Part shown: positions 22,825 to 57,553 of the stretch, piece after piece
How positions within the stretch are numbered: position 1 is the stretch's first letter
Layout of the letters: the number at the start of each line of letters is the position of its first letter
NCBI GenBank assembly: GCA_963785725.1
Contig: CAWAWS010000047.1
Span: 32,001-96,000 of the forward strand
DNA length: 64,000 nt
Reading direction: 5' to 3'
From: an uncultured delta proteobacterium
Lineage (GTDB): Bacteria; Myxococcota_A; Polyangia; Palsa-1104
Position numbers and translations under genes: made by a program
Notes under the pieces: model-generated
What the model was told of the DNA's origin: nothing
The model's input: only the letters and a program-made list of their open reading frames with translations
The model's database searches: none

Positions 22825-23259
22825 ATGGCCGAGACGACGCAGACAGTCGAATGGACCGATCTTCCGCCGACGCCTCGACTGGCGCGCCCGCCCCGCGTGC
22901 TGCTCGTCGACGATGAGGAGGACTTTCTCGAGCTGATGAAGGAGATTCTCGAAGGCGCCGGCTTCACGGTCGAGTGTGCGCGAGCGGCGGGCGAGGCCGT
23001 GGCGCGCGCCGTGGCCAATCCGCCCGACGTCATCCTGCTCGACATCTTGCTGCCGGGTTGTGACGGGCTCGAGATCCTGGAGACGCTGCGCAACGAGCCG
23101 GAGACGAGCGACGTGCCGGTGTTGGCGTGCACGGCGCTCGGCCAGCGCGACTCGGGTCCGCTGTTGGTGCAGGCGGGCTTCGACGGGCTCGTGTCCAAGC
23201 CCATCAACTGGCACGACCTCGAGCGGCTGTTGACGGCGGTCATCAACGCGCACGGCTGA
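22825..23259 (+). CDS. Single-domain response regulator
   Basis: VLLVDDE, DVILLDILLPGCDG, ACTA, SKP receiver motifs. Confidence 0.92.
   Translation: MAETTQTVEWTDLPPTPRLARPPRVLLVDDEEDFLELMKEILEGAGFTVECARAAGEAVARAVANPPDVILLDILLPGCDGLEILETLRNEPETSDVPVLACTALGQRDSGPLLVQAGFDGLVSKPINWHDLERLLTAVINAHG

Positions 23260-44919: not shown

Positions 44920-44920
<1 letters not shown>
44099..44920 (+). CDS. etfB: Electron transfer flavoprotein beta subunit
   Basis: [48 protein letters not shown]. Confidence 0.95.
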
Positions 44921-45893
<973 letters not shown>

Positions 45894-45907
45894 CGTAAGC
45901 TCTGCCG

Positions 45908-46807: not shown

Positions 46808-48613
46808 ATGACGACGCGACGTAAGCCAACGCTGGGCTGGGTCGCCGCGGTGGGCGCATTGGCGCTCGCGCTCGGCTGGTGTGTCGTGTGCCCTTGGCTC
46901 ACGGCGCTCTCCTTGGCGCACGCGACGGCGCTGGTGCCCATCGAAGGCGCGGGCGCGCTCGTGGTCGGCCTGGCCGGCTGGCGCGCGGCGCGGGCGTCGT
47001 CGACGTTGGGGCCGCGCGGCGCCGTTCGCTTGGGCGGCGTCATGGCGCTGGTCGGCGCCGGCGCGTCGCTGGTGACGGCGTTGGCGCTCTTGAAGCCGCT
47101 CGGCCCCTCGGCCGCGGTCGCGCTCGCGCTCGCCGACGGCGGCTGGACCATCTGCGTCGCGCTCACCGTCATGTTGGTGGCGATGTGGCGCATCGGCCGC
47201 AAGCGCGGCGACGAGTCGGTCGGTCGCGCCGTGTCGCTGCGCTCGCTCTTGGCCGGCGCGTCGGGCCTGTTGGCGACCGCGGCGTGGGCGCTGGCGTCCG
47301 GCCACGTGCTCGGACAGCTGCACGCCGACGCCGATCGCCACGCCCTCGACGAGGCGCGCGACCTCGTCGCCATCGTCGCCGAGCGCGCGCTCATCTCCGA
47401 CGAGCTCGACGACATCGCGCCCACGCTCGCGCCCGCCGGCGGCTACTTGGTCTCGCTCGACGACGCCGGCCGCGTGCTCGACGGCGTCGGCGTCGGGGTG
47501 CCCGCCGGCGCCGAAGTCTTGCTGGCCGGCCGCGACGCCTGCCGCATCGGACCGCGCATCCTGCCCTGCGCCGTGCGCCGCCTCGTCGACGGCACCATCG
47601 TCGCCGCCGCCGTTCCCGCAGTGCCGCTCGCCCGCGGCGTCGTCCTCGGCTTCGCGCTCGCCGGCCTCTTCGTCGCCCTGACCGCGCTCGGCATCGGCGG
47701 GCTCATCGGCGCCGGCACGGCCCGCGATCTCTCCCGCGTGGCGCAGACGCTCGACGAGCTCGGCCGCAACGCGCGCGGCCTCGATCGCCTCGTCGTCGCG
47801 CTGACGCATGACGAAGTCGGCGAGCTGGCGACCGCGCTCGGACAGCTGCGCGCGCGCTTGGCGCCGGGGCTCGCCGAATACCAAGCGGCGCTAGAGAAAG
47901 CGCAGGCCGCCGATCAAGCGCGCACCGAGTTTTTGACGCTGGTCTCGGCGGAGCTGCGCACGCCGCTCGATCGCATCTTGGCCGGCGCGCGCACCTTGCT
48001 CGATCCCGCCGCCGAGCCGCTCTCGGACGAGCAAAAAGAGGACGTGCGCATCGTGCTCACGTCGACGACGCACTTGGTCGATCTCATCGACGAGGTGCTC
48101 GATATCTCGGCGATCGCGACCGGACAGGTGCAGCTCAAGCTCGGGCAGGTCGATCTCGGACAGCTGGTGGCCGACGTCGCCAAAGCGCAGCGACCGCTGG
48201 TGCAGCAAAAGGGCGTCGAGATCAAGATCGACATCGACACGCCGTCACCCGATGCGCGCGCCGACGAACGGCGGCTGCGCCAAGTCGTCACCAACATCAT
48301 CTCCAACGCCGTCAAGTTCACAGAGAAGGGCTCGATCGAAATTGGCGTGCATCGCGAGTCGGACCGCGTCGTCATCAGCGTCAAAGACACGGGGCCGGGA
48401 ATCGCCGACGAGCAGCTGCCCAAGCTGTTCTCGGAGTTCGTGCAGCTGGGCTCGTTGAAGCAGCGCGCGCGCGGCACCGGGCTCGGCCTCGCCATCTGCA
48501 AACGGCTCGTCGAAGCGCACGGCGGGCAGGTCGCGGCCGAATCCAAAGTCGGCGTCGGCTCCATCTTTCGCGTCATCTTGCCGGCGCGCGGACCGGACGT
48601 GTCGCGCGCATGA
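46808..48613 (+). CDS. Membrane HAMP-HisKA-HATPase protein lacking the phosphoacceptor His (His-less kinase subunit)
   Basis: H-box SAELRTPL (GCG at 47948-47950); intact N (NIISNAVKFT), G1 (DTGPGI), F (LFSEF) and G2 (GTGLGL) boxes. Confidence 0.88.
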   Translation: MTTRRKPTLGWVAAVGALALALGWCVVCPWLTALSLAHATALVPIEGAGALVVGLAGWRAARASSTLGPRGAVRLGGVMALVGAGASLVTALALLKPLGPSAAVALALADGGWTICVALTVMLVAMWRIGRKRGDESVGRAVSLRSLLAGASGLLATAAWALASGHVLGQLHADADRHALDEARDLVAIVAERALISDELDDIAPTLAPAGGYLVSLDDAGRVLDGVGVGVPAGAEVLLAGRDACRIGPRILPCAVRRLVDGTIVAAAVPAVPLARGVVLGFALAGLFVALTALGIGGLIGAGTARDLSRVAQTLDELGRNARGLDRLVVALTHDEVGELATALGQLRARLAPGLAEYQAALEKAQAADQARTEFLTLVSAELRTPLDRILAGARTLLDPAAEPLSDEQKEDVRIVLTSTTHLVDLIDEVLDISAIATGQVQLKLGQVDLGQLVADVAKAQRPLVQQKGVEIKIDIDTPSPDARADERRLRQVVTNIISNAVKFTEKGSIEIGVHRESDRVVISVKDTGPGIADEQLPKLFSEFVQLGSLKQRARGTGLGLAICKRLVEAHGGQVAAESKVGVGSIFRVILPARGPDVSRA

Positions 48614-50494
48614 GCCCGGGAGCGACGATCGCAGCCCGCACCGCGATGACGGCGCGCGTGCGCATCTTGGCCGGCTGCATGGTGCTGGCGATCGGCGTGG
48701 CGTTCCTACTGCCGTCACTGTTTCAGTGGGTGCTGCATCTGTCGCCGAACGAAGCCGAATACACGCGGCGCGCGTTCTGGGCCGGCGTGCCGCTCGATCT
48801 GACGGCGCTGACGACGACGGTGTGGATCGGCCTGTCGGGCGTCGATCGCGCGCAGCCGGGCGACGAGCGCGCCCGCCGCCGCGTGTTGGCGCTGCCGTTC
48901 CGCTTGTCGCTGGTGACGGTCGTGTTCGGCATCGTGATGGCGCTGGGCGCGATGGCCTTCGATCAGTACAAGACGCAGACGCCCTTGCCGATCGCGTTCG
49001 GCTTGACGCTGTGCTCGTGCGCGATGATCGCGCTCGTCGCCGTGCCGCTCTTTGCCTTGACGCGCGCGGCGCTCGTGCCGTTGGCGCAGCGGTTGGCGAC
49101 GGAGTCGCCGCCGATGGGCCGGCCCTTGTCGCTGCGCGTGCAGCTCGGCTACACGGTGTTCGCCATCGCCACGGCCGCGGTCGTGCCGGCAGCGGTCTTC
49201 GGCATGGCGCAGCTCGAAGCCGCGGCCGCGACCGAAGCGCACGCGCGCGCCGAGAAGACCGCGTCGCGGCTGGCGGCGACCGCGCAAGAGCTCGACGTCG
49301 TGGCCGCGACGCGCCTCATGACGCGCACGCCGTTGTCGGGTCGCGAGCGCGTCATCTTGCGCGCGCCGTCGGGCTCGCTCATTCCCGACGACGCCGCCGA
49401 CGAAGTGTCGTGGATGCCGTATGTCGAGAAGCGACTCGGCGGCTCGCTGGCCGGCGGCGCGCTGCGGATCTATTACGCGCCGCGCCCGATCTCGCCGGTC
49501 GCGCTGATGTTGGTGACGCTCGGCCTCTTGCTGCTCGCGCTCGTCGTCGCCTCCACGATCGGCACCGCCGTCGCCAAAGACGCGCACGGCGTGGCCGAGC
49601 AGAATCGCGCGCGTCGCCGCCGGCGAAGAGCCGGAGCCGCTCGGCGCCGTCGCCACCGCCGAAGTGCGCCGCGTGACGATGGCCGTCAACCGCCTGCTCG
49701 AGCGCATCCCGCGCTTGACGGTCGAGTCCTTCTTGGCCGTCGAGCGCGCCGAAGAGGCTCGCCGTCTCAAAGCGCAGTTCTTGGCCAATATGAGCCACGA
49801 TTTGCGCTCGCCGCTGAACTCGATCTTGGGCTTCTCCGAGCTGCTCTTGCGCAACTTGGAAGGCGAGATTTCGCCCGGCCAGCGCGTCGTCTTGGCGGCG
49901 GTGCACGCGACCGGTCTCAACTTGTTGCGATTGCTGACCGAGATCTTGGACACGGCGAAAGTCGAGAGCGGCAAGATGGAGCTGCATCGCCAGTCGACGC
50001 CGCCGGCCGAGCTGCTCACGCAGGCGCTGCAAGAGGCGCGGCGCGGTCGCGCGCAGGCCGCCACCGACAAGCTCGTCGTCGAGCTGCAGCCGGGAATGGG
50101 CCCGATTTACGTCGATCCGCTGCGCATGGTGCAGGCGATTACCCATCTCGTGAACTACGCGCTCGACGCGGCCGATGGCGGACGCGCCATGTTGCAAGCG
50201 AGCGAAGGCGAGATGGCGGAGTCGCGCGTGCTCCTGCTCGACATCGAGCACGACGGCGTCCTCGAAGATCACGAGCGCCGCGAGGTGTTCGACGGCTTCC
50301 GGCGCATCGCCGGCAAACAGGGTCTGAATCTGGCGCTGCCGCTGGCCAAGCGCATCCTCGAGCTGCACGGCGGCCAATTGGACCTCGTCAACGCCGGCCA
50401 ATCGGGGCAGCGGCCGCGCTTTCGCGCCGTGGTGCCGATCGGCGTCCGCCGCGAAAAAGCCACGCCCACCCGCGGCGTTCCCCGCATTCCGTAG
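48610..50494 (+). CDS. Membrane HAMP-HisKA protein with intact His and degenerate HATPase domain; one +1 frameshift near 49603
   Basis: MSHDLRSPLNSILGFS; N box HLVNYALDA, no DxGxG, G2 GLNLAL. Confidence 0.85.
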
Positions 50495-50587: not shown

Positions 50588-51577
50588 ATGACCGTCTCAC
50601 CAGTTCCACTCGAGCCACCCGAACGGCCGCGCGATGCCCGCGCCGCGCTCTCACGACTAGAAACGGCCGTCGCGCGCGTCATTCACGGCAAAGGCGCGGT
50701 CGTGCGCATGGCCATCAGCGCGCTGGCGGCGCGCGGCCACGTGCTCATCGAAGACGTGCCCGGTGTCGGCAAGACCACGCTCGCTCGCGCCTTGGCGCGC
50801 GCCATCGGCGGCACGTTCCGCCGCATTCAGTTCACGTCCGATCTATTGCCGTCGGACATCCTCGGCGTCACCATCTTCAACCAAGAGTCGGGCCGCTTCG
50901 AGTTTCGCCGCGGTCCCATCTTCGCCAACGTCGTGCTCGCGGACGAGATCAACCGCACGACGCCGCGCACGCAGTCGTCGCTGCTCGAAGCCATGAGCGA
51001 AGGCCGCGTCTCGCTCGACAACTTCACGCACGAGCTCGATCAGCCGTTCATCGTCCTGGCGACGCAGAACCCGCTCGAGCACTTCGGCACCTATCCCTTG
51101 CCCGAGTCGCAGATGGATCGTTTCCTGTTGCGCTTGCGCATGGGCTATCCGTCGCCGGCCGACGAACGGCGCGTGGTCACCTCGGCGCAGCTCGAAGATC
51201 CGGTGGAGAGCCTGCAGCCGGTCGTCGACGCCACCGACATCGCGGCGATTCAGCACGCGGCGGCGCGCGTGCGCGTCGAAGATGCGCTCGTCGATTACGG
51301 CCAGCGCGTCGTCAGCGCCACGCGCGAGTCGCCGTTCTTGGCGCTCGGCGTGTCACCGCGCGGCTTTCAAGGCTGGTATCGCGTCGCCAAGTCGCGCGCG
51401 CTCATCGGCGGTCGCGACTTCGCCGTGCCCGACGACTTCAAAGAGACCGCGCTGCCGGCGCTCGCGCATCGCCTGGTGCTGTCGGGTGGCGGCGCCGGCG
51501 AGCCGCTCGGCCGCGCGCGTGAAGAGGCGGAGCGCGTCCTGACCAATCTCCTCGAGCGCATCCCGGTTCCCGCGTAG
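50588..51577 (+). CDS. moxR: MoxR family AAA+ ATPase
   Basis: EDVPGVGKT, RIQFTSDLLPSD, LADEINR, ATQNP, PLPESQMDRF. Confidence 0.95.
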   Translation: MTVSPVPLEPPERPRDARAALSRLETAVARVIHGKGAVVRMAISALAARGHVLIEDVPGVGKTTLARALARAIGGTFRRIQFTSDLLPSDILGVTIFNQESGRFEFRRGPIFANVVLADEINRTTPRTQSSLLEAMSEGRVSLDNFTHELDQPFIVLATQNPLEHFGTYPLPESQMDRFLLRLRMGYPSPADERRVVTSAQLEDPVESLQPVVDATDIAAIQHAAARVRVEDALVDYGQRVVSATRESPFLALGVSPRGFQGWYRVAKSRALIGGRDFAVPDDFKETALPALAHRLVLSGGGAGEPLGRAREEAERVLTNLLERIPVPA

Positions 51578-51583
51578 GCGAAG

Positions 51584-52711
51584 ATGCCGCGCCGCCGTAG
51601 CAATTGGGAGCGCGCCGCCGGTTGGATGCGCGTCGCCGCGTGGCGCTTTGGCCGCCGCCTGCGCAAGTGGTGGAAACCGCCGCGGCGCCTGCAGTTCACG
51701 CGCGAGGGCAAGTACTTCGTCGGCATCACCATCGGCGTCGGCTTCGCGGCCATCAACACCGGCAACAACCTGCTCTACCTCCTGCTCGGCATGATGCTGT
51801 CGCTCATCATTGCCTCCGGGATCATGAGCGAGCTGTCGCTGCGCGATCTGACGGTCACGCGCCAGCCGCCCTCGCGCATCCACGCGCGCCGGCCGTTTCT
51901 GATGGGCATCGGGCTCGCCAACGGCAAGAAGCGGCTGCCTTCGTTCTCGGTCGAGGTCGAGGATTTGGTCGGCGAGCGGCCGCTCGACAAGAAGTGTTAC
52001 TTCCTGAAGCTGCCCGCGGGACGACTGCAGCACACCTCCTATCGCCACACGTTTCCCCGCCGCGGCCGCTACACGTACTCGGGCTTTCGGCTGTCGACGA
52101 AGTTTCCCTTCGCGCTCTTTCGCAAGTCGCGCCTCGTCGATCGCGCGACCGAAGTCATCGTCTATCCGCAGCTGGCGCAGCTCGGTCACGCACAAGCGCC
52201 GCGCGCGCGCGTCGCCGGCCTGGAAGCGCAGAACCGGCGCGGCCGACAGGGCGAATTCCACGGCCTGCGCGAGTTTCGCGACGGCGACGATCCGCGCGAC
52301 ATTCACTGGCGCTCGACGGCGAAGGTCGGTCGCACGCTCGTCCGCGAGCACGAGGAGGAGGCCGCGCGTCGCGTCACGATCTACCTCGACAACGCGCTGC
52401 CCGAAGGCGAGCTGTGTCCCGACGAGCTGGCCAAAGACGGCCTCGAGCGCGCCATTTCGCTTGCCGCGTCGCTCGCCGCCGACTATCTCGAGCGCGGTTA
52501 TGCCGTGCGCGTCGTGACGCGCGGCGATGCCGTGCCGCCGTGGCTGCAAGGCCCGCCGCAGCTCGTGCGCCTATTGAAGACGCTGGCGCTGTTGCCGACG
52601 GCGACACCGGAGCAGCCGTTTCCGCCCGTCGGTGACGCCAGCGCCGAGCCGATCTTGATCGTGCGCAAAGGCGGACCGCGCGCGGCCTTCACGCGGGTGA
52701 TCGAAGCGTGA
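51584..52711 (+). CDS. DUF58 domain protein
   Basis: AAINTGNNLLY, EFHGLREFRDGDDPRDIHWRSTAK, LVREHE. Confidence 0.92.
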   Translation: MPRRRSNWERAAGWMRVAAWRFGRRLRKWWKPPRRLQFTREGKYFVGITIGVGFAAINTGNNLLYLLLGMMLSLIIASGIMSELSLRDLTVTRQPPSRIHARRPFLMGIGLANGKKRLPSFSVEVEDLVGERPLDKKCYFLKLPAGRLQHTSYRHTFPRRGRYTYSGFRLSTKFPFALFRKSRLVDRATEVIVYPQLAQLGHAQAPRARVAGLEAQNRRGRQGEFHGLREFRDGDDPRDIHWRSTAKVGRTLVREHEEEAARRVTIYLDNALPEGELCPDELAKDGLERAISLAASLAADYLERGYAVRVVTRGDAVPPWLQGPPQLVRLLKTLALLPTATPEQPFPPVGDASAEPILIVRKGGPRAAFTRVIEA

Positions 52712-52760
52712 GCGCGCAGGTTCGCGCCGCCAGCGCGCCGCTTGCGAGCGTGACCGGCGC

Positions 52761-54959
52761 ATGAGGTTCAGCGCCATCCACAAAGCGACGTCGTACCTCA
52801 TGGTCGCCGCCGCCTTCGCCACGCTCGCCCTGTCGCACGAGCTCTCGCCCGTCGTCGTCGGGCTGACGCTCGGGGCCGGCCTGCTCTCTTATCCGTTCGA
52901 GCCTGCGCGCCATCCGCGCTTGCGCGCCCGCGCCTGGACCGCCGGCTGGAACGCCGTCAGCCTCGCGGTCTTCGCGCTCACGCTCATCGACGCCATCCGC
53001 GGCGACGCCTTGCCCGCCGGCGTCCGCTTCTTGTGCTTTCTGCTCGTCAACAAGCTGTGGAACCGCAAGTCATCACGCGATTACTTGCAAGCCTACGTCG
53101 TCAGCTTCCTCATGCTCGTCGCCGGCGCCGCGCTCAACAACGAGCTCGCCTACGCCGGCTGCTTCTTGGCCTACGTCATCTTCGCCACCTGGACGCTCAC
53201 GCTCTTCCACTTGCGCCGCGAGATGGAAGAGAACTACCTCATCAAACATTCCGACGACGGCGCCGAACGCGTCGAGGTCGATCGCATCCTCAACTCGCGC
53301 CGCATCGTCGGCTGGTCGTTCCTCGGCGTGACCTCAATCGTCTCGGTCGGCGTCTTCGTTGGCGCGACGTTGGTGTTCTTCCTCATTCCGCGCTTCGGCT
53401 TCGGCTTCTTCGCCACGCACACGCGCCACGGCCAGATGACCGTCGGCTTCAGCGATCGCGTCGACCTGAACGGCTACGGCCTCGTCAAAGACAATCCGCA
53501 AGTCGTCATGCGCGTCGAGTTTCCGGGGCCGCTGCCGGCCGAGCCGCTGCGCTTCCGCGGCGTCGCGTTCGACAAGTACGAGAGAGGTCGCTGGACCCGC
53601 ACGTTGACCGCGCAATCGCCGATGCGTCGTTGGGGCGACCTCGCGTTCATCGGCGAGATGTCGCGTCATTTGAACGGGCCGCGCGTGCGCGACTTCTTGA
53701 GCCACGCGTTGGAGCAGCGCATCTACCTCAATCCGCTCGACACGGCCGTGCTCTTCGGCGCATCGCGGGCGGTGGCGTTCGAGATGCCCTCGGGCGGCGG
53801 TCTCGGCCCGGCGCCGGTCGTCGCCGAGCCGCGACCCGGCGACGAAGTCTATGCCGTCGAGCGCCGCTTCAACCGCGACGGCAACTACAGCTCCGTCGAG
53901 CGCCGCTCGGGCTTGCGCTACAGCGTCTACTCCGACGTGTCATCGCCCGACGAGCGCGTGTTGCGCCTCGCGCCCGACGCCGATCGCGAAGACGACGAGC
54001 TCGCGCCGTATCTCGCCTTGCCCGCCGATTTGCCGCCACGCGTCGCCGAGCTGGCGCGCCAGATCACCCGTGACGCGCACGGCCCGTGGCAAAAGGCGCG
54101 CGCCATCTCCGACTACCTCGCGCGCTATAAATACACGCTCGATCTCAAGCGCGACGAGCGCTACGAGCCGCTCGAAGACTTCCTGTTCGTGCAAAAGGCC
54201 GGTCACTGCGAATATTTCGCGTCGGCGCTGGCCGTGCTCTTGCGCGTCGTCGGCGTGCCGACGCGCTCCGTCAACGGCTTCTTGGGCGGCGAATGGAACA
54301 GCTACGGCCACTATCTCGCCGTCCGCCAAGGCGACGCGCACTCGTGGGTCGAAGTGTGGATCGACGGCGCCGGCTGGGTGACGATGGATCCGACGCCGCC
54401 CGGCGCCGCGCCCGCGAGCTCCGGCGGCGCGTGGAACGCCATGCGCCAGCTCGCCGACAACATGGAGCTGGCCTGGTTCAAGTACGTCATCGAGTACGAC
54501 CTCGGCAAGCAGGCCGACATCGTCAGCGGCGTGCGGCGCTGGGCGCAGCTCGCGTCCAAGCGCGACGCCGTCGACGCGGCGGTACGCCGCTATGCGGCGC
54601 CGCTCGTCGGCGCGGCCGCGGCGCTCTATGGTTTGTGGCTGCTCTTGGGCGTGTGGCGTCGCCGCCGGCTGCCGGCACAACGCATTCGGGGCGGCGCCGA
54701 GGCGCTGCACGCGTATGCGCGCGCGTTGAAAGCGCTCGAACGGCGCGGCTTTCAGCGCGGCGCGGGCGAGACCGGCCGCGAGCTCGCCGCGCGCGTCGAA
54801 CGCGCCGCCGATCCGGCCGCGGCGCCGTTCACCGAGCTCGTCGAGCTTTACTACGCCGCGCGCTTCGGCAACGTCCCGATCGCGACCGCCGAGCTCGAGC
54901 GGCTGGCGCATTCGGTGGCCGCCTCGCCGCCCGCACCAGAAGTCGCTGCCGCCGGCTGA
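52761..54959 (+). CDS. TgpA-like membrane transglutaminase (DUF3488, TGase, DUF4129)
   Basis: TM N-terminus; [22 protein letters not shown] triad; LYYAARFG tail. Confidence 0.92.
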
Positions 54960-54999: not shown

Positions 55000-55118
55000 G
55001 TTTGACACTTTGGCTCAACATGGCTTTCGCTCGTGACGCGATGACGTCCTATCGGCTCCGTGCCGGTCGCAACCCGCGGGAATCACACGCGGCATTCCGC
55101 TTGCACACCCGCGCCCCC

Positions 55119-56696
55119 ATGCGTCTCACGCTCGCCTGCGCCGCGCTGTCGGCCTTTGCGTTCGCCGGAACCGCCCACGCGCAGACCGCTACCGCCTCCG
55201 GCACCTGCTCCGGCACCGACTCGTCGGGCGGCATGATCGCCGGAACGGTCGGCCTCGCCGTCCCCGGCAGTGACGGGACGACGTTCTCGAGCGTCGCGGC
55301 CGCGTCGGTCCCCTACGTCTTCGGCGCCGCCGAGTGCGAGTGCACACCCGACGAGAGCGACCAGATCAACCTGGAAATCCAGCTCACCTCGGCGTTCGGA
55401 AACTCGGACACGCCAGCCACCGTCGAGGTTTGGGTCGGCTCGGGCTGCGACACGTACACGACGCGCACGACCGTCGGCGAGACGGTATGCGAGAAGCTGA
55501 CGACCGGCATCCCGCAGTTCACCAACTTCACGACGGCGAGCAACGCCGGCCTGCTCATTCACATCCCGATCCCCGGCAACGCCCTGACCGCACCCGTGAC
55601 GCACCAGTGCACGACGGCCACAGTCAGCAACTCGATCTACGTCTTCATCTTCAACGATCCGACCATGCCGAGCGCGTCTTGCACGCTCACTGGCATCACC
55701 GAGCAGGGCCAGCCGCCGACCGCCGTCACCGGCATCACCGCCGGCTCCGGCGACGGCTCGGTCACCCTGACGTGGACCGCGCCGCCGCAAAACAGCTTCA
55801 GCCCGGCCGGATATCAGGTCCTCTGCACCGACGACTGCGGCAACGTCATCAAGCCCTCGCATTCGGCGGCGCAGTATTCGACCTGCGTCAACGGCGTTCT
55901 GCAGCGGCGCACGATCCCGACCGGTGGCTCGCTGCCGACGACGGGTGACGCCGGCGTCGCGACGACGGGTGACCTCGGGACCTTCTCGCTCACCGGCCAA
56001 ATCGACCCCGCAGCCGAGCCTGAAGCGACACCGGCCGCGGAGCCGGCCATGGGCTGCGGCGGCGACGGCGGAACCTCGTTGTTCAGCGGCGACATGGCGT
56101 CCGCGACAAACGATATGGGCACGACGGTCAACAACAACGGCCCGCTCACGAACATGGATCCGAAGTTCATCTGCTCGGGCATGATCGGCGCCACCGGCAA
56201 CTCGGCGCGCATCACCGGCCTGACCAACAACACGCGCTACCACTTCACCGTGCTCTCGTACGACTTCTACGGCAACGCGTCCGCCTCCGCCGTCGTCGAC
56301 GCCATCCCGCAGCCGACCGAGGATCTCTATCGCCGCTATCGCGACTCCGGCGGCGCCGCCGGCGGCTGCTTCATCGCCACCGCCGCGTTCGGCTCGTACG
56401 AAAGCGACTGGGTCTACATCTTGCGCGACTTCCGCGATCAGGTGCTCTTGCCGAGCGACACCGGCCACGCGTTCGTCAACTGGTACTACGCCAACAGCCC
56501 GCCCGGCGCCGCGTGGATCGCCGAGCGCCCGTGGGCGCGCGCCGTCACGCGCGTTCTCCTCTTGCCGTTCATCGCCGGCGCGTTCTTCTGGGTCTACTTC
56601 GCGGCCTGGCAAAAGGCGCTCTTCATCTTGCTGCTGGCGGCGTTGGTCATGCGTAAGCGCCTCGCGGCCGCGATCGAGCGAGGACAGCGCGCGTGA
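55119..56696 (+). CDS. Secreted Cys/Thr-rich fibronectin-III-like protein with C-terminal CFI-box-CTERM domain
   Basis: Signal peptide; GDGSVTLTW and ITGLTNNTRYHFTV FnIII strands; GGCFIATAAFGS..LRDFRD..FVNWYY..SPP plus TM. Confidence 0.8.
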   Translation: MRLTLACAALSAFAFAGTAHAQTATASGTCSGTDSSGGMIAGTVGLAVPGSDGTTFSSVAAASVPYVFGAAECECTPDESDQINLEIQLTSAFGNSDTPATVEVWVGSGCDTYTTRTTVGETVCEKLTTGIPQFTNFTTASNAGLLIHIPIPGNALTAPVTHQCTTATVSNSIYVFIFNDPTMPSASCTLTGITEQGQPPTAVTGITAGSGDGSVTLTWTAPPQNSFSPAGYQVLCTDDCGNVIKPSHSAAQYSTCVNGVLQRRTIPTGGSLPTTGDAGVATTGDLGTFSLTGQIDPAAEPEATPAAEPAMGCGGDGGTSLFSGDMASATNDMGTTVNNNGPLTNMDPKFICSGMIGATGNSARITGLTNNTRYHFTVLSYDFYGNASASAVVDAIPQPTEDLYRRYRDSGGAAGGCFIATAAFGSYESDWVYILRDFRDQVLLPSDTGHAFVNWYYANSPPGAAWIAERPWARAVTRVLLLPFIAGAFFWVYFAAWQKALFILLLAALVMRKRLAAAIERGQRA

Positions 56697-57553
56697 AACG
56701 TCTCGCTCTCGCTTCCTTCTTATTCTTGGCGCTCGCAGCGCCTGCGCACGCGCAGGACGAGAATTACGGCGGCGGTCCCGCCACCGAATTCGGCGAGAAC
56801 GCGCCGCACAACTACGAGTCCTCGCAGAACTTCGCGTTCGAGATCAAGCTCGGCCCGTACTCGCCCAACATCGATGGCTCGCCCGGATTGAACAAGCTCG
56901 GCGGCCATCCGTTCGCCGATCTGTTCTCGCCCGGCAAAGCGCGTCCGCCGGGCAAGCTCTTGACCCAGCTCGAGTTCGACTACGAGTTCTGGCACAAGTG
57001 GTACGGTAGCTTCGGTCTCGGCCACAACATCGGCTACTACCGCCGCACGGCGCACGCGCTCGAGTACAACGGCGGCAACCCGGCATCGCCCTGCGATCCG
57101 GTCGCGAACCAAAAGTGCGTCGGCTCGAGCGGCGACACGACGTCGCTCAACATCATTCCGCTCGAGCTCACGCTCAACTACCGCTTCGATCTGCTCGCGC
57201 GCCGCTGGCACATTCCCATCGTCCCTTACGTCAAGGTCGGTCTGGCCTACTACGTTTGGTGGATCGAGAACGGCGGCGGCTTCCTCTCGATCGCCAACTA
57301 CAAAAACGCCGCCGGCAAAACGACCGACACCGGCTGGGGCGGCACGCTCGGCTGGGTGCTCAACCCGGGCGGCATGTTCCTGCTCGATGTGCTCGACCCG
57401 ACCGCCGCGCACACGCTCGACAGCGAGCTCGGCATCAACCACACCTACCTCTTCTGCGAGCTGCACTACGCCGACATCACCGGCTTCGGCGCCAGCAACA
57501 AGATGAACCTCTCCGACGTCACGCTCAACGCCGGCCTCGGCTTCGAATTCTAA
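56693..57553 (+). CDS. Outer-membrane beta-barrel protein, MXAN_2562-like
   Basis: Signal peptide, FEIKLGPYSPNID, YRFD..IPIVPYVKVGL, LDSELGINHTYLF, C-terminal GLGFEF. Confidence 0.8.
   Translation: MKRLALASFLFLALAAPAHAQDENYGGGPATEFGENAPHNYESSQNFAFEIKLGPYSPNIDGSPGLNKLGGHPFADLFSPGKARPPGKLLTQLEFDYEFWHKWYGSFGLGHNIGYYRRTAHALEYNGGNPASPCDPVANQKCVGSSGDTTSLNIIPLELTLNYRFDLLARRWHIPIVPYVKVGLAYYVWWIENGGGFLSIANYKNAAGKTTDTGWGGTLGWVLNPGGMFLLDVLDPTAAHTLDSELGINHTYLFCELHYADITGFGASNKMNLSDVTLNAGLGFEF

Follow-up and report, generated by a model that had tools for sequence, protein, structure and literature searches.

The window analysed here is a stretch of 64,000 nucleotides from an uncultured delta proteobacterium (Myxococcota_A; Polyangia; Palsa-1104; contig CAWAWS010000047.1, positions 32,001 to 96,000), and the element of interest is a pair of adjacent kinase-like genes of soil myxobacteria, A and B, both on the forward strand. 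Gene A (46808..48613), delimited from its open reading frame (ORF), its Pfam matches and a structure model, encodes a membrane kinase of 601 residues. Its product comprises five transmembrane (TM) segments, a small extracytoplasmic alpha/beta domain (approximately 47300..47632, placed from the model and the alignment), a sixth TM segment, a HAMP domain, a domain for dimerization and for histidine phosphotransfer (DHp), and a catalytic ATP-binding (CA) domain. Gene B (48610..50494) encodes a membrane kinase-like protein of about 627 residues with the same layout and a degenerate CA domain, and is joined to A by an ATGA stop/start overlap (48610..48613). This arrangement had been described in an earlier interpretation based on the letters alone (hereafter the sequence-only reading), and the six hydrophobic segments found in each protein bear it out. 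Behind the TM and HAMP parts, both chains carry HisKA and HATPase_c, with Pfam scores of 41.7 and 109.9 bits in A and of 57.3 and 34.9 bits in B. The model of A has a mean predicted local distance difference test value (pLDDT) of 85.3; the model of B from genome G004 reaches 88.5 and shows the CA fold.

The two chains have reciprocal defects, which are present in the sequence as had been claimed. At the position of the phospho-accepting histidine, A has Ala381, encoded by GCG (47948..47950) within an H-box that reads SAELRTP, as established from the sequence and from the alignment of homologues. Its ATP site is intact, with an N box (N496 and N500, in NIISNAVKFT), a G1 box (DTGPG, in DTGPGI) and a G2 box (GTGLGL) distributed over 48293..48490. 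B keeps the phospho-histidine (CAC, 49796..49798, in SHDLRSPLNSILGFSE; H-box SHDLRSP), and its ATP-site motifs (50144..50338) are degenerate: a tyrosine replaces the N-box asparagine in HLVNY (50156-50158), a G1 remnant HDGV stands in the place of DxGxG (50249-50260), and G2 reads GLNLAL instead of GxGxG (50321-50338). Neither chain combines a phospho-histidine with intact N, G1 and G2 boxes, as a canonical HisKA kinase does. A is likely the ATP-using half of the pair, and B is likely the half that accepts the phosphoryl group and docks the regulator. Among the 154 kinase-like ORFs of the genome, A is one of five that aligned without the histidine (another 29 lack an alignable H-box), and B has the lowest ATP-motif score (2/7) of the full-length, His-bearing ones; the pairing of the two defects thus exceeds what chance would give. 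Three other kinase-like ORFs of the same genome (C26:163283-165487, C15:193630-196827 and C39:718802-721429) also lack the histidine in candidate alignments and have six to seven of the seven ATP motifs.

In the present assembly, the frame of B is shifted by one extra base at 49603. In all four same-genus relatives compared, B lies in one open frame and is exactly one base shorter, and the base is also absent from a contig of the independent run X1 (1085 nt, 97% identical, with 31 differences and one gap). The neighbouring etfA gene (44920-45898 of the window) is fragmented as well, with single-base differences from public contigs near 45445 and 45794; it is continuous in genome G004, which indicates indel errors in this assembly. 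Because the base at 49603 is missing from the relatives and from run X1, and because etfA nearby is frameshifted too, the extra base is most likely an assembly error, as the sequence-only reading had supposed.

The defects of both genes are conserved. A protein search with A returned 78 homologues, of which 77 extend to the H-box; none of these 77 has a histidine at the corresponding position (Ala in 40, Val in 14, Gly, Thr and Ile in 5 each, Ser and Glu in 3 each, Asp in 2), and every homologue that can be aligned at the ATP-site motifs (76-77) retains the residues of the N box, G1 and G2. Out of 239 matches to B, the best 120 were taken and 118 analysed, two apparent A-B fusions being counted with A. 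In this set, the phospho-histidine occurs in 117 of 117 aligned homologues and the N-box asparagine in only one of 115. The two fusions (P0016 and P0073) have their terminal sequence out of frame and look like frameshift artefacts.

The two genes also occur together. A clear orthologue of A was found in 13 of 40 relatives, with B directly downstream in all 13, one of them cut by a contig end. Within the order, the organism's own genome included, a His-less A is present in 17 of 42 genomes and B lies directly downstream in 17 of 17; in the 13 inspected among the other 25 genomes, the best match is an unrelated His-bearing kinase. Wherever the contig allowed the check, neither gene occurred without the other, and a stop/start overlap in B's frame joins them in 87 of 98 pairs. 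At one locus (L030, G011:C19), little is left of the extracytoplasmic beta domain in A and of the N-terminal membrane segments in B, and the split pattern is retained in both kinase halves. Three further loci (L178-L180, in G038, G031 and G032) form a diverged His-less clade in which the H-box of B reads SHDLRNALS and its CA domain is barely alignable.

The helices of the DHp domain offer a further comparison. In a kinase dimer, the CA domain is described as hanging on helix a2, and the handedness of a loop as placing the histidine near the CA domain of its own chain or of the sister chain (PMC6798134). In HK853, positions that determine regulator specificity are His+8, +11 and +15 on helix a1 and +34 and +37 on a2, according to the titles of the PDB entries. 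A heterodimer working in trans would be live on one face (B-a1, A-a2 and A-CA) and dead on the other (A-a1, B-a2 and B-CA). At helix positions taken to be exposed, the entropy of a1 over the 17 His-less pairs is 1.83 in A vs 0.30 in B, and that of a2 is 1.20 in A vs 2.17 in B; positions +8, +11 and +15 of A-a1 are variable. In a separate clade of four pairs (f4), the values for A and B are 1.41 and 0.18 in a1, and 0.31 and 1.38 in a2. Within the genus, the ratio of non-synonymous to synonymous substitution rates (dN/dS) follows the same lines, being 0.32 in A vs 0.04 in B for a1, 0.03 vs 0.09 for a2 and 0.20 vs 0.43 for CA; these values are rough, as they rest on four GC-rich sequences per gene and an approximate method, and they stay below 0.45 in every region of both genes. 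As far as sequence comparison goes, this mirror-image conservation is what a trans-phosphorylating heterodimer predicts.

It can be proposed that A and B assemble into one membrane-bound heterodimer, in which the CA domain of A would phosphorylate the histidine of B in trans and helix a1 of B would dock a putative response regulator. Such a dimer would have one working face (B-a1, A-a2 and A-CA), the opposite face (A-a1, B-a2 and B-CA) being chemically dead and left to drift. The defects of the two chains and the selection on their helices make it probable that the ATP domain of A phosphorylates the histidine of B in this way. RetS, GacS and the RetS-GacS heterodimer (7Z8N, 6DK7/8, 7N0E) are among the closest solved relatives of the pair by profile and by fold. 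In the published account of GacS, a H293A mutant mixed with a G2-box mutant (G472A/G474A) is reported to autophosphorylate in trans (PMC8498467); by analogy, this mixture is a laboratory version of what the A/B pair would be. Prediction of the A/B complex lends the proposal weak support, with a score of 0.58 vs 0.00 for the best control, agreement between runs in at least 60% of the contacts and a partner pLDDT of at least 76. The mark used in this prediction is reached by 116 of 157 solved pairs and by 2 of 215 mismatched pairs; of the pairs that reach it, only 18 solved ones and both mismatches score 0.60 or under. Since the controls are unrelated proteins and similar kinase dimers have already been solved, so that the pass may owe to known structures, the prediction adds little.

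Beyond the order, the pair is spread across the class, including the cultured genera Nannocystis, Plesiocystis, Enhygromyxa and Paraliomyxa. Among 108 distinct loci, 99 have both genes; the other nine show B only, the side of A being a contig edge. Together with 10 pairs from a further search, the two-gene loci make 109 pairs. Both kinases are intact in eight pairs, 78 combine a His-bearing A with a B devoid of the N-box asparagine, 22 combine a His-less A with a dead B (the N box of one being poorly aligned), and one is unreadable owing to a truncated B. No His-less A lies beside an intact, Asn-bearing B in any of the 109 pairs. The majority state is an intermediate one and is found in Nannocystis exedens DSM 71, Plesiocystis pacifica SIR-1, Enhygromyxa salina SWB005 and Paraliomyxa miuraensis SMH-27-4. 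One outcome that the sequence-only reading had set as refuting, orthologues of A that usually keep the histidine, is thus seen in the class, where most pairs have a His-bearing A, and not in the order, where 17 of 17 pairs are split. At locus L144:3453-5591 (G090), the A partner reads SHALRTP, with the histidine kept and an alanine at His+1, and may be an intermediate on the way to loss of the histidine. The six best matches in other classes inspected in a sample of 301 genomes of the phylum are unrelated intact kinases, with no orthologue among them.

The order of the losses was examined in trees. When compared with 133 other kinases in an alignment that omits the His column, the A partners form one group (FastTree support 98-99) and the B partners another (100). 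A sister relation of A and B as paralogues is weakly supported, the grouping having a support of 50 in one tree and being absent from two others; the A and B profiles align over 492 columns, membrane part included. In an unrooted tree of 59 thinned pairs, made under a quick mixture model with the H-box of A and the CA domain of B omitted, three changes are needed for the histidine of A and three for the asparagine of B. An approximately unbiased (AU) test on 34 rows rejects a single origin of the His loss, at a p value of 0.006 that becomes 0.037 once the long-branched L150 is removed (a marginal value that long branches may bias), and a single clade of dead B partners (p 7e-7). Across the class, the HATPase_c domain of B scores between 93-97 bits at best and no match at all, with 63, 35 and 17 bits as steps between. 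If the intact state is ancestral, the ATP site of B would have decayed several times and the histidine of A would have been lost two or three times, always beside a dead B. The history would then have started with a pair of neighbouring kinases, both intact and possibly paralogous in tandem, which were able to heterodimerise; decay of the ATP site of B in several lineages would have made the histidine of A dispensable, and its loss would have followed.

Several points weigh against an A/B heterodimer of this kind or restrict its range. We infer the dimer, the path of the phosphoryl group and the inactivity of both homodimers from sequence, which itself shows that the defects are reciprocal, conserved and found together, that the genes overlap and that selection on the helices is mirror-image. 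The controls of the complex prediction are unrelated proteins and not paralogous kinases or homodimers. The invariance of the histidine of B is partly built into searches that used H-box peptides or shared words; it is also kept in all B loci recovered by whole-profile genome searches. The sequences are related and many rows are close kin, so that the tallies overstate the number of independent events. In the C-terminal half of a2, it is B that varies less (entropy 0.58, against 1.01 in A), which confines the mirror pattern to the N-terminal half with its exposed positions. The neighbourhood of the pair yielded no cognate regulator, a receiver gene being present in seven of 108 loci and conserved in none. 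Finally, 86 of 108 readable A partners across the class keep the histidine and a conserved H-box, and in 71 His-bearing pairs a1 of A is conserved (entropy 0.73, with Thr at +4 in 92%). In most relatives, the histidine of A is therefore still under selection and an A homodimer may also be active; the face of A itself is still used there, perhaps for a phosphatase activity or within homodimers of A. An obligate model does not explain this and is limited to the His-less lineages, and the split became obligate as a derived condition, in some lineages only. The split heterodimer put forward in the sequence-only reading thus stands for the present lineage, on conservation, co-occurrence and mirror-image helices, and has to be given up as an obligate state of the whole class.

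Other explanations of the pair have been considered. B might be a phosphotransferase or phosphatase similar to RedE or ChpT, loaded from a phosphorylated receiver, with A as an ATP-binding allosteric partner that transfers nothing to B. RedE of Myxococcus xanthus is described as having the histidine without autophosphorylating (PMC2755868), at least 150 receiver domains are encoded in the genome, and in the 78 pairs in which A keeps its own histidine a relay from A through a receiver to B is possible. Such a role is unlikely, since in the 22 His-less pairs A is unable to start a relay and nevertheless keeps its catalytic N and G boxes, since no receiver gene is conserved over the 108 loci, and since a2 of A, expected to flank the histidine of B, is the most constrained helix (dN/dS 0.03). 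Alternatively, the two proteins could be separate pseudokinases, A being a DivL-like scaffold or the partner of another kinase, and B a histidine acceptor or a RetS-like inhibitor for other kinases. RetS is reported to heterodimerise with GacS and to block it (PMC8498467), and DivL is described as a catalytically inactive regulator (PMC12189002). DivL also heads the fold search with A (Z 22.0, root-mean-square deviation 6.9, 222 residues aligned), tied with ordinary kinases, and the roughly 154 kinase-like ORFs of the genome are possible partners. In a DivL-like pseudokinase, the regulator-docking face of a1 is conserved despite the loss of the histidine. That face has drifted in A (the exposed entropy of 1.83 given above), which argues against a DivL-like scaffold. 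As A and B never separate where the contig allowed the check and overlap in most pairs, and as the histidine of A is lost only beside a dead B, independent roles for the two proteins appear very unlikely.

A decaying or mis-assembled locus without function might be suspected from the frameshift of B in this assembly and from the decay of its CA domain across the class. This possibility is already largely refuted and hardly credible, because the frameshift is absent from relatives and from an independent run, both genes are under constraint throughout, and the same defects recur in dozens of homologues.

Two further proposals of the sequence-only reading fared less well. A was suggested as a possible source of phosphatase activity through its E-x-x-T motif. 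The residue at His+4 is Ser in 35 of the 77 homologues, Asn in 17, Thr in 11, Gly and Ala in 4 each and Leu in 3, with Asp, Glu and Lys also found; because this position varies and the whole exposed face of a1 has drifted, the idea fails in this lineage. Ser, Asn and Thr together account for 63 of the 77, and a residual phosphatase role is possible. The proposed AND gate over two membrane sensors is likewise unsupported, one dimer being one composite sensor. In 16 of 88 measurable pairs, the N-terminal part of A is reduced to 230 residues or fewer before the His position, and in many relatives it holds about two hydrophobic segments; such shrunken parts argue against a universal two-sensor AND gate. 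It is doubtful that a repeated, one-directional series from intact pairs to an obligate half-of-sites heterodimer goes together, in the fully split lineage, with two different extracytoplasmic domains that form a composite sensor and require input through either subunit at once, as a two-signal AND gate in a single dimer would. As to the sensors themselves, Pfam gives nothing above its cut-off for the sensor domain of A or B, and whole-chain fold searches for their identity matched the kinase core only. Weak Atlas matches (0.89-0.91) of the A domain to GAPES4, CHASE and sCache clusters are leads only. A pair of cysteines (C245 and C254) in this domain is nearly invariant.

The surroundings of the pair are partly conserved. 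Of 150 scored receiver matches in the genome, none is closer to the pair than about 20 kb, in line with the earlier remark that no response regulator is adjacent; the nearest ones are at 22897 of the window and at contig position 102589. A trio of moxR, DUF58 and transglutaminase-like genes follows the pair (50588-54959). Over 76 loci with enough downstream sequence, moxR is found in 37, DUF58 in 32 and the transglutaminase-like gene in 30, and the trio occurs in many families of the class, in both-intact and His-less lineages alike. Upstream, etfB-etfA precede the pair in 34 of 63 loci. This context may reflect a regulated operon or plain synteny. Further downstream (55002-57553) are a CFI-box-CTERM surface protein and an outer-membrane barrel of the MXAN_2562 family. 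In about 20 Nannocystaceae-like loci and at L102:8362-9495, an O-methyltransferase gene lies 3' of B. A promoter scan yielded no sigma-70-like site and is uninformative.

The concept of a split kinase has already been published, and the closest case is FasB/FasC of Streptococcus pyogenes. In the published account, these proteins form a two-hybrid heterodimer and no homodimer, His246 of FasC is required and its kinase domain is dispensable; FasB is proposed to phosphorylate FasC in trans, its candidate histidine H284 being untested and phosphorylation in cis not excluded (PMC12675982). Both systems consist of two adjacent six-TM kinase-like genes, and B, judged by sequence only, would resemble FasC in supplying the required histidine and in having a dispensable kinase domain. 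The majority state of the present family, a His-bearing A beside a dead B, matches FasB/FasC. However, A has lost its histidine whereas FasB keeps the candidate H284, and the Fas locus contains the regulator FasA whereas no regulator is found at the A/B locus. The intact-to-split series seen in the A/B family is another difference from Fas. Because the locus holds no regulator, A/B is not filed as a member of Fas, beside which it was set without a sequence comparison. Both A and B score best with TorS/ArcB/BarA-like models, all far below the cut-off.

Other systems are more distant. Rv0600c/Rv0601c of Mycobacterium tuberculosis is a HisKA-type kinase whose ATP domain and histidine are on two proteins; unlike A and B, neither of these is a full-length sensor, both being partial, and a regulator lies next to them. 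Like RetS-GacS, A and B would associate through their DHp domains; by the same account, RetS inhibits GacS, both also homodimerise and the complementing GacS pair was engineered (PMC8498467), and unlike RetS and GacS, A and B have no receiver domains. In Rhodobacter sphaeroides, CheA3 and CheA4 carry the histidine and the ATP domain on two proteins, neither of which is reported to autophosphorylate alone (PMC3591291), and Hik36/Hik43 of Synechocystis are described as sharing these elements in the same manner (PMC7656254). Both belong, in these accounts, to the CheA class, with HPt domains and with domains physically absent from the partner; A and B are full-length membrane HisKA kinases, both with a CA fold and with defects at the level of points. 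RedE is reported as soluble, its HATPase_c being conserved and its system including a receiver partner (PMC2755868), whereas B has six hydrophobic segments and a sensor domain, with no conserved receiver nearby. DivL is presented as a single pseudokinase (PMC12189002). RedE and DivL are, as described, kinase-like proteins without autophosphorylation, as A and B would be, and neither is a reciprocal pair.

No published description of this myxobacterial pair was found in a literature search made without its taxon names. What would be new is that a HisKA kinase is forced to work in trans, and that the passage from intact to split pairs is repeated. In annotation, both genes are named as ordinary kinases, and sensor kinases are usually treated as homodimers. 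If confirmed, the pair would be a kinase found in nature that has one active face only, the loss of the second histidine leaving no way but phosphorylation in trans. It would stand one step beyond FasB/FasC and provide a clean tool for studying asymmetry in kinase dimers. Moreover, since pairs in the family range from intact over half-split to fully split, and since the losses recur in the same order, it allows a direct test of the idea that duplication followed by complementary decay gives rise to obligate heteromers.

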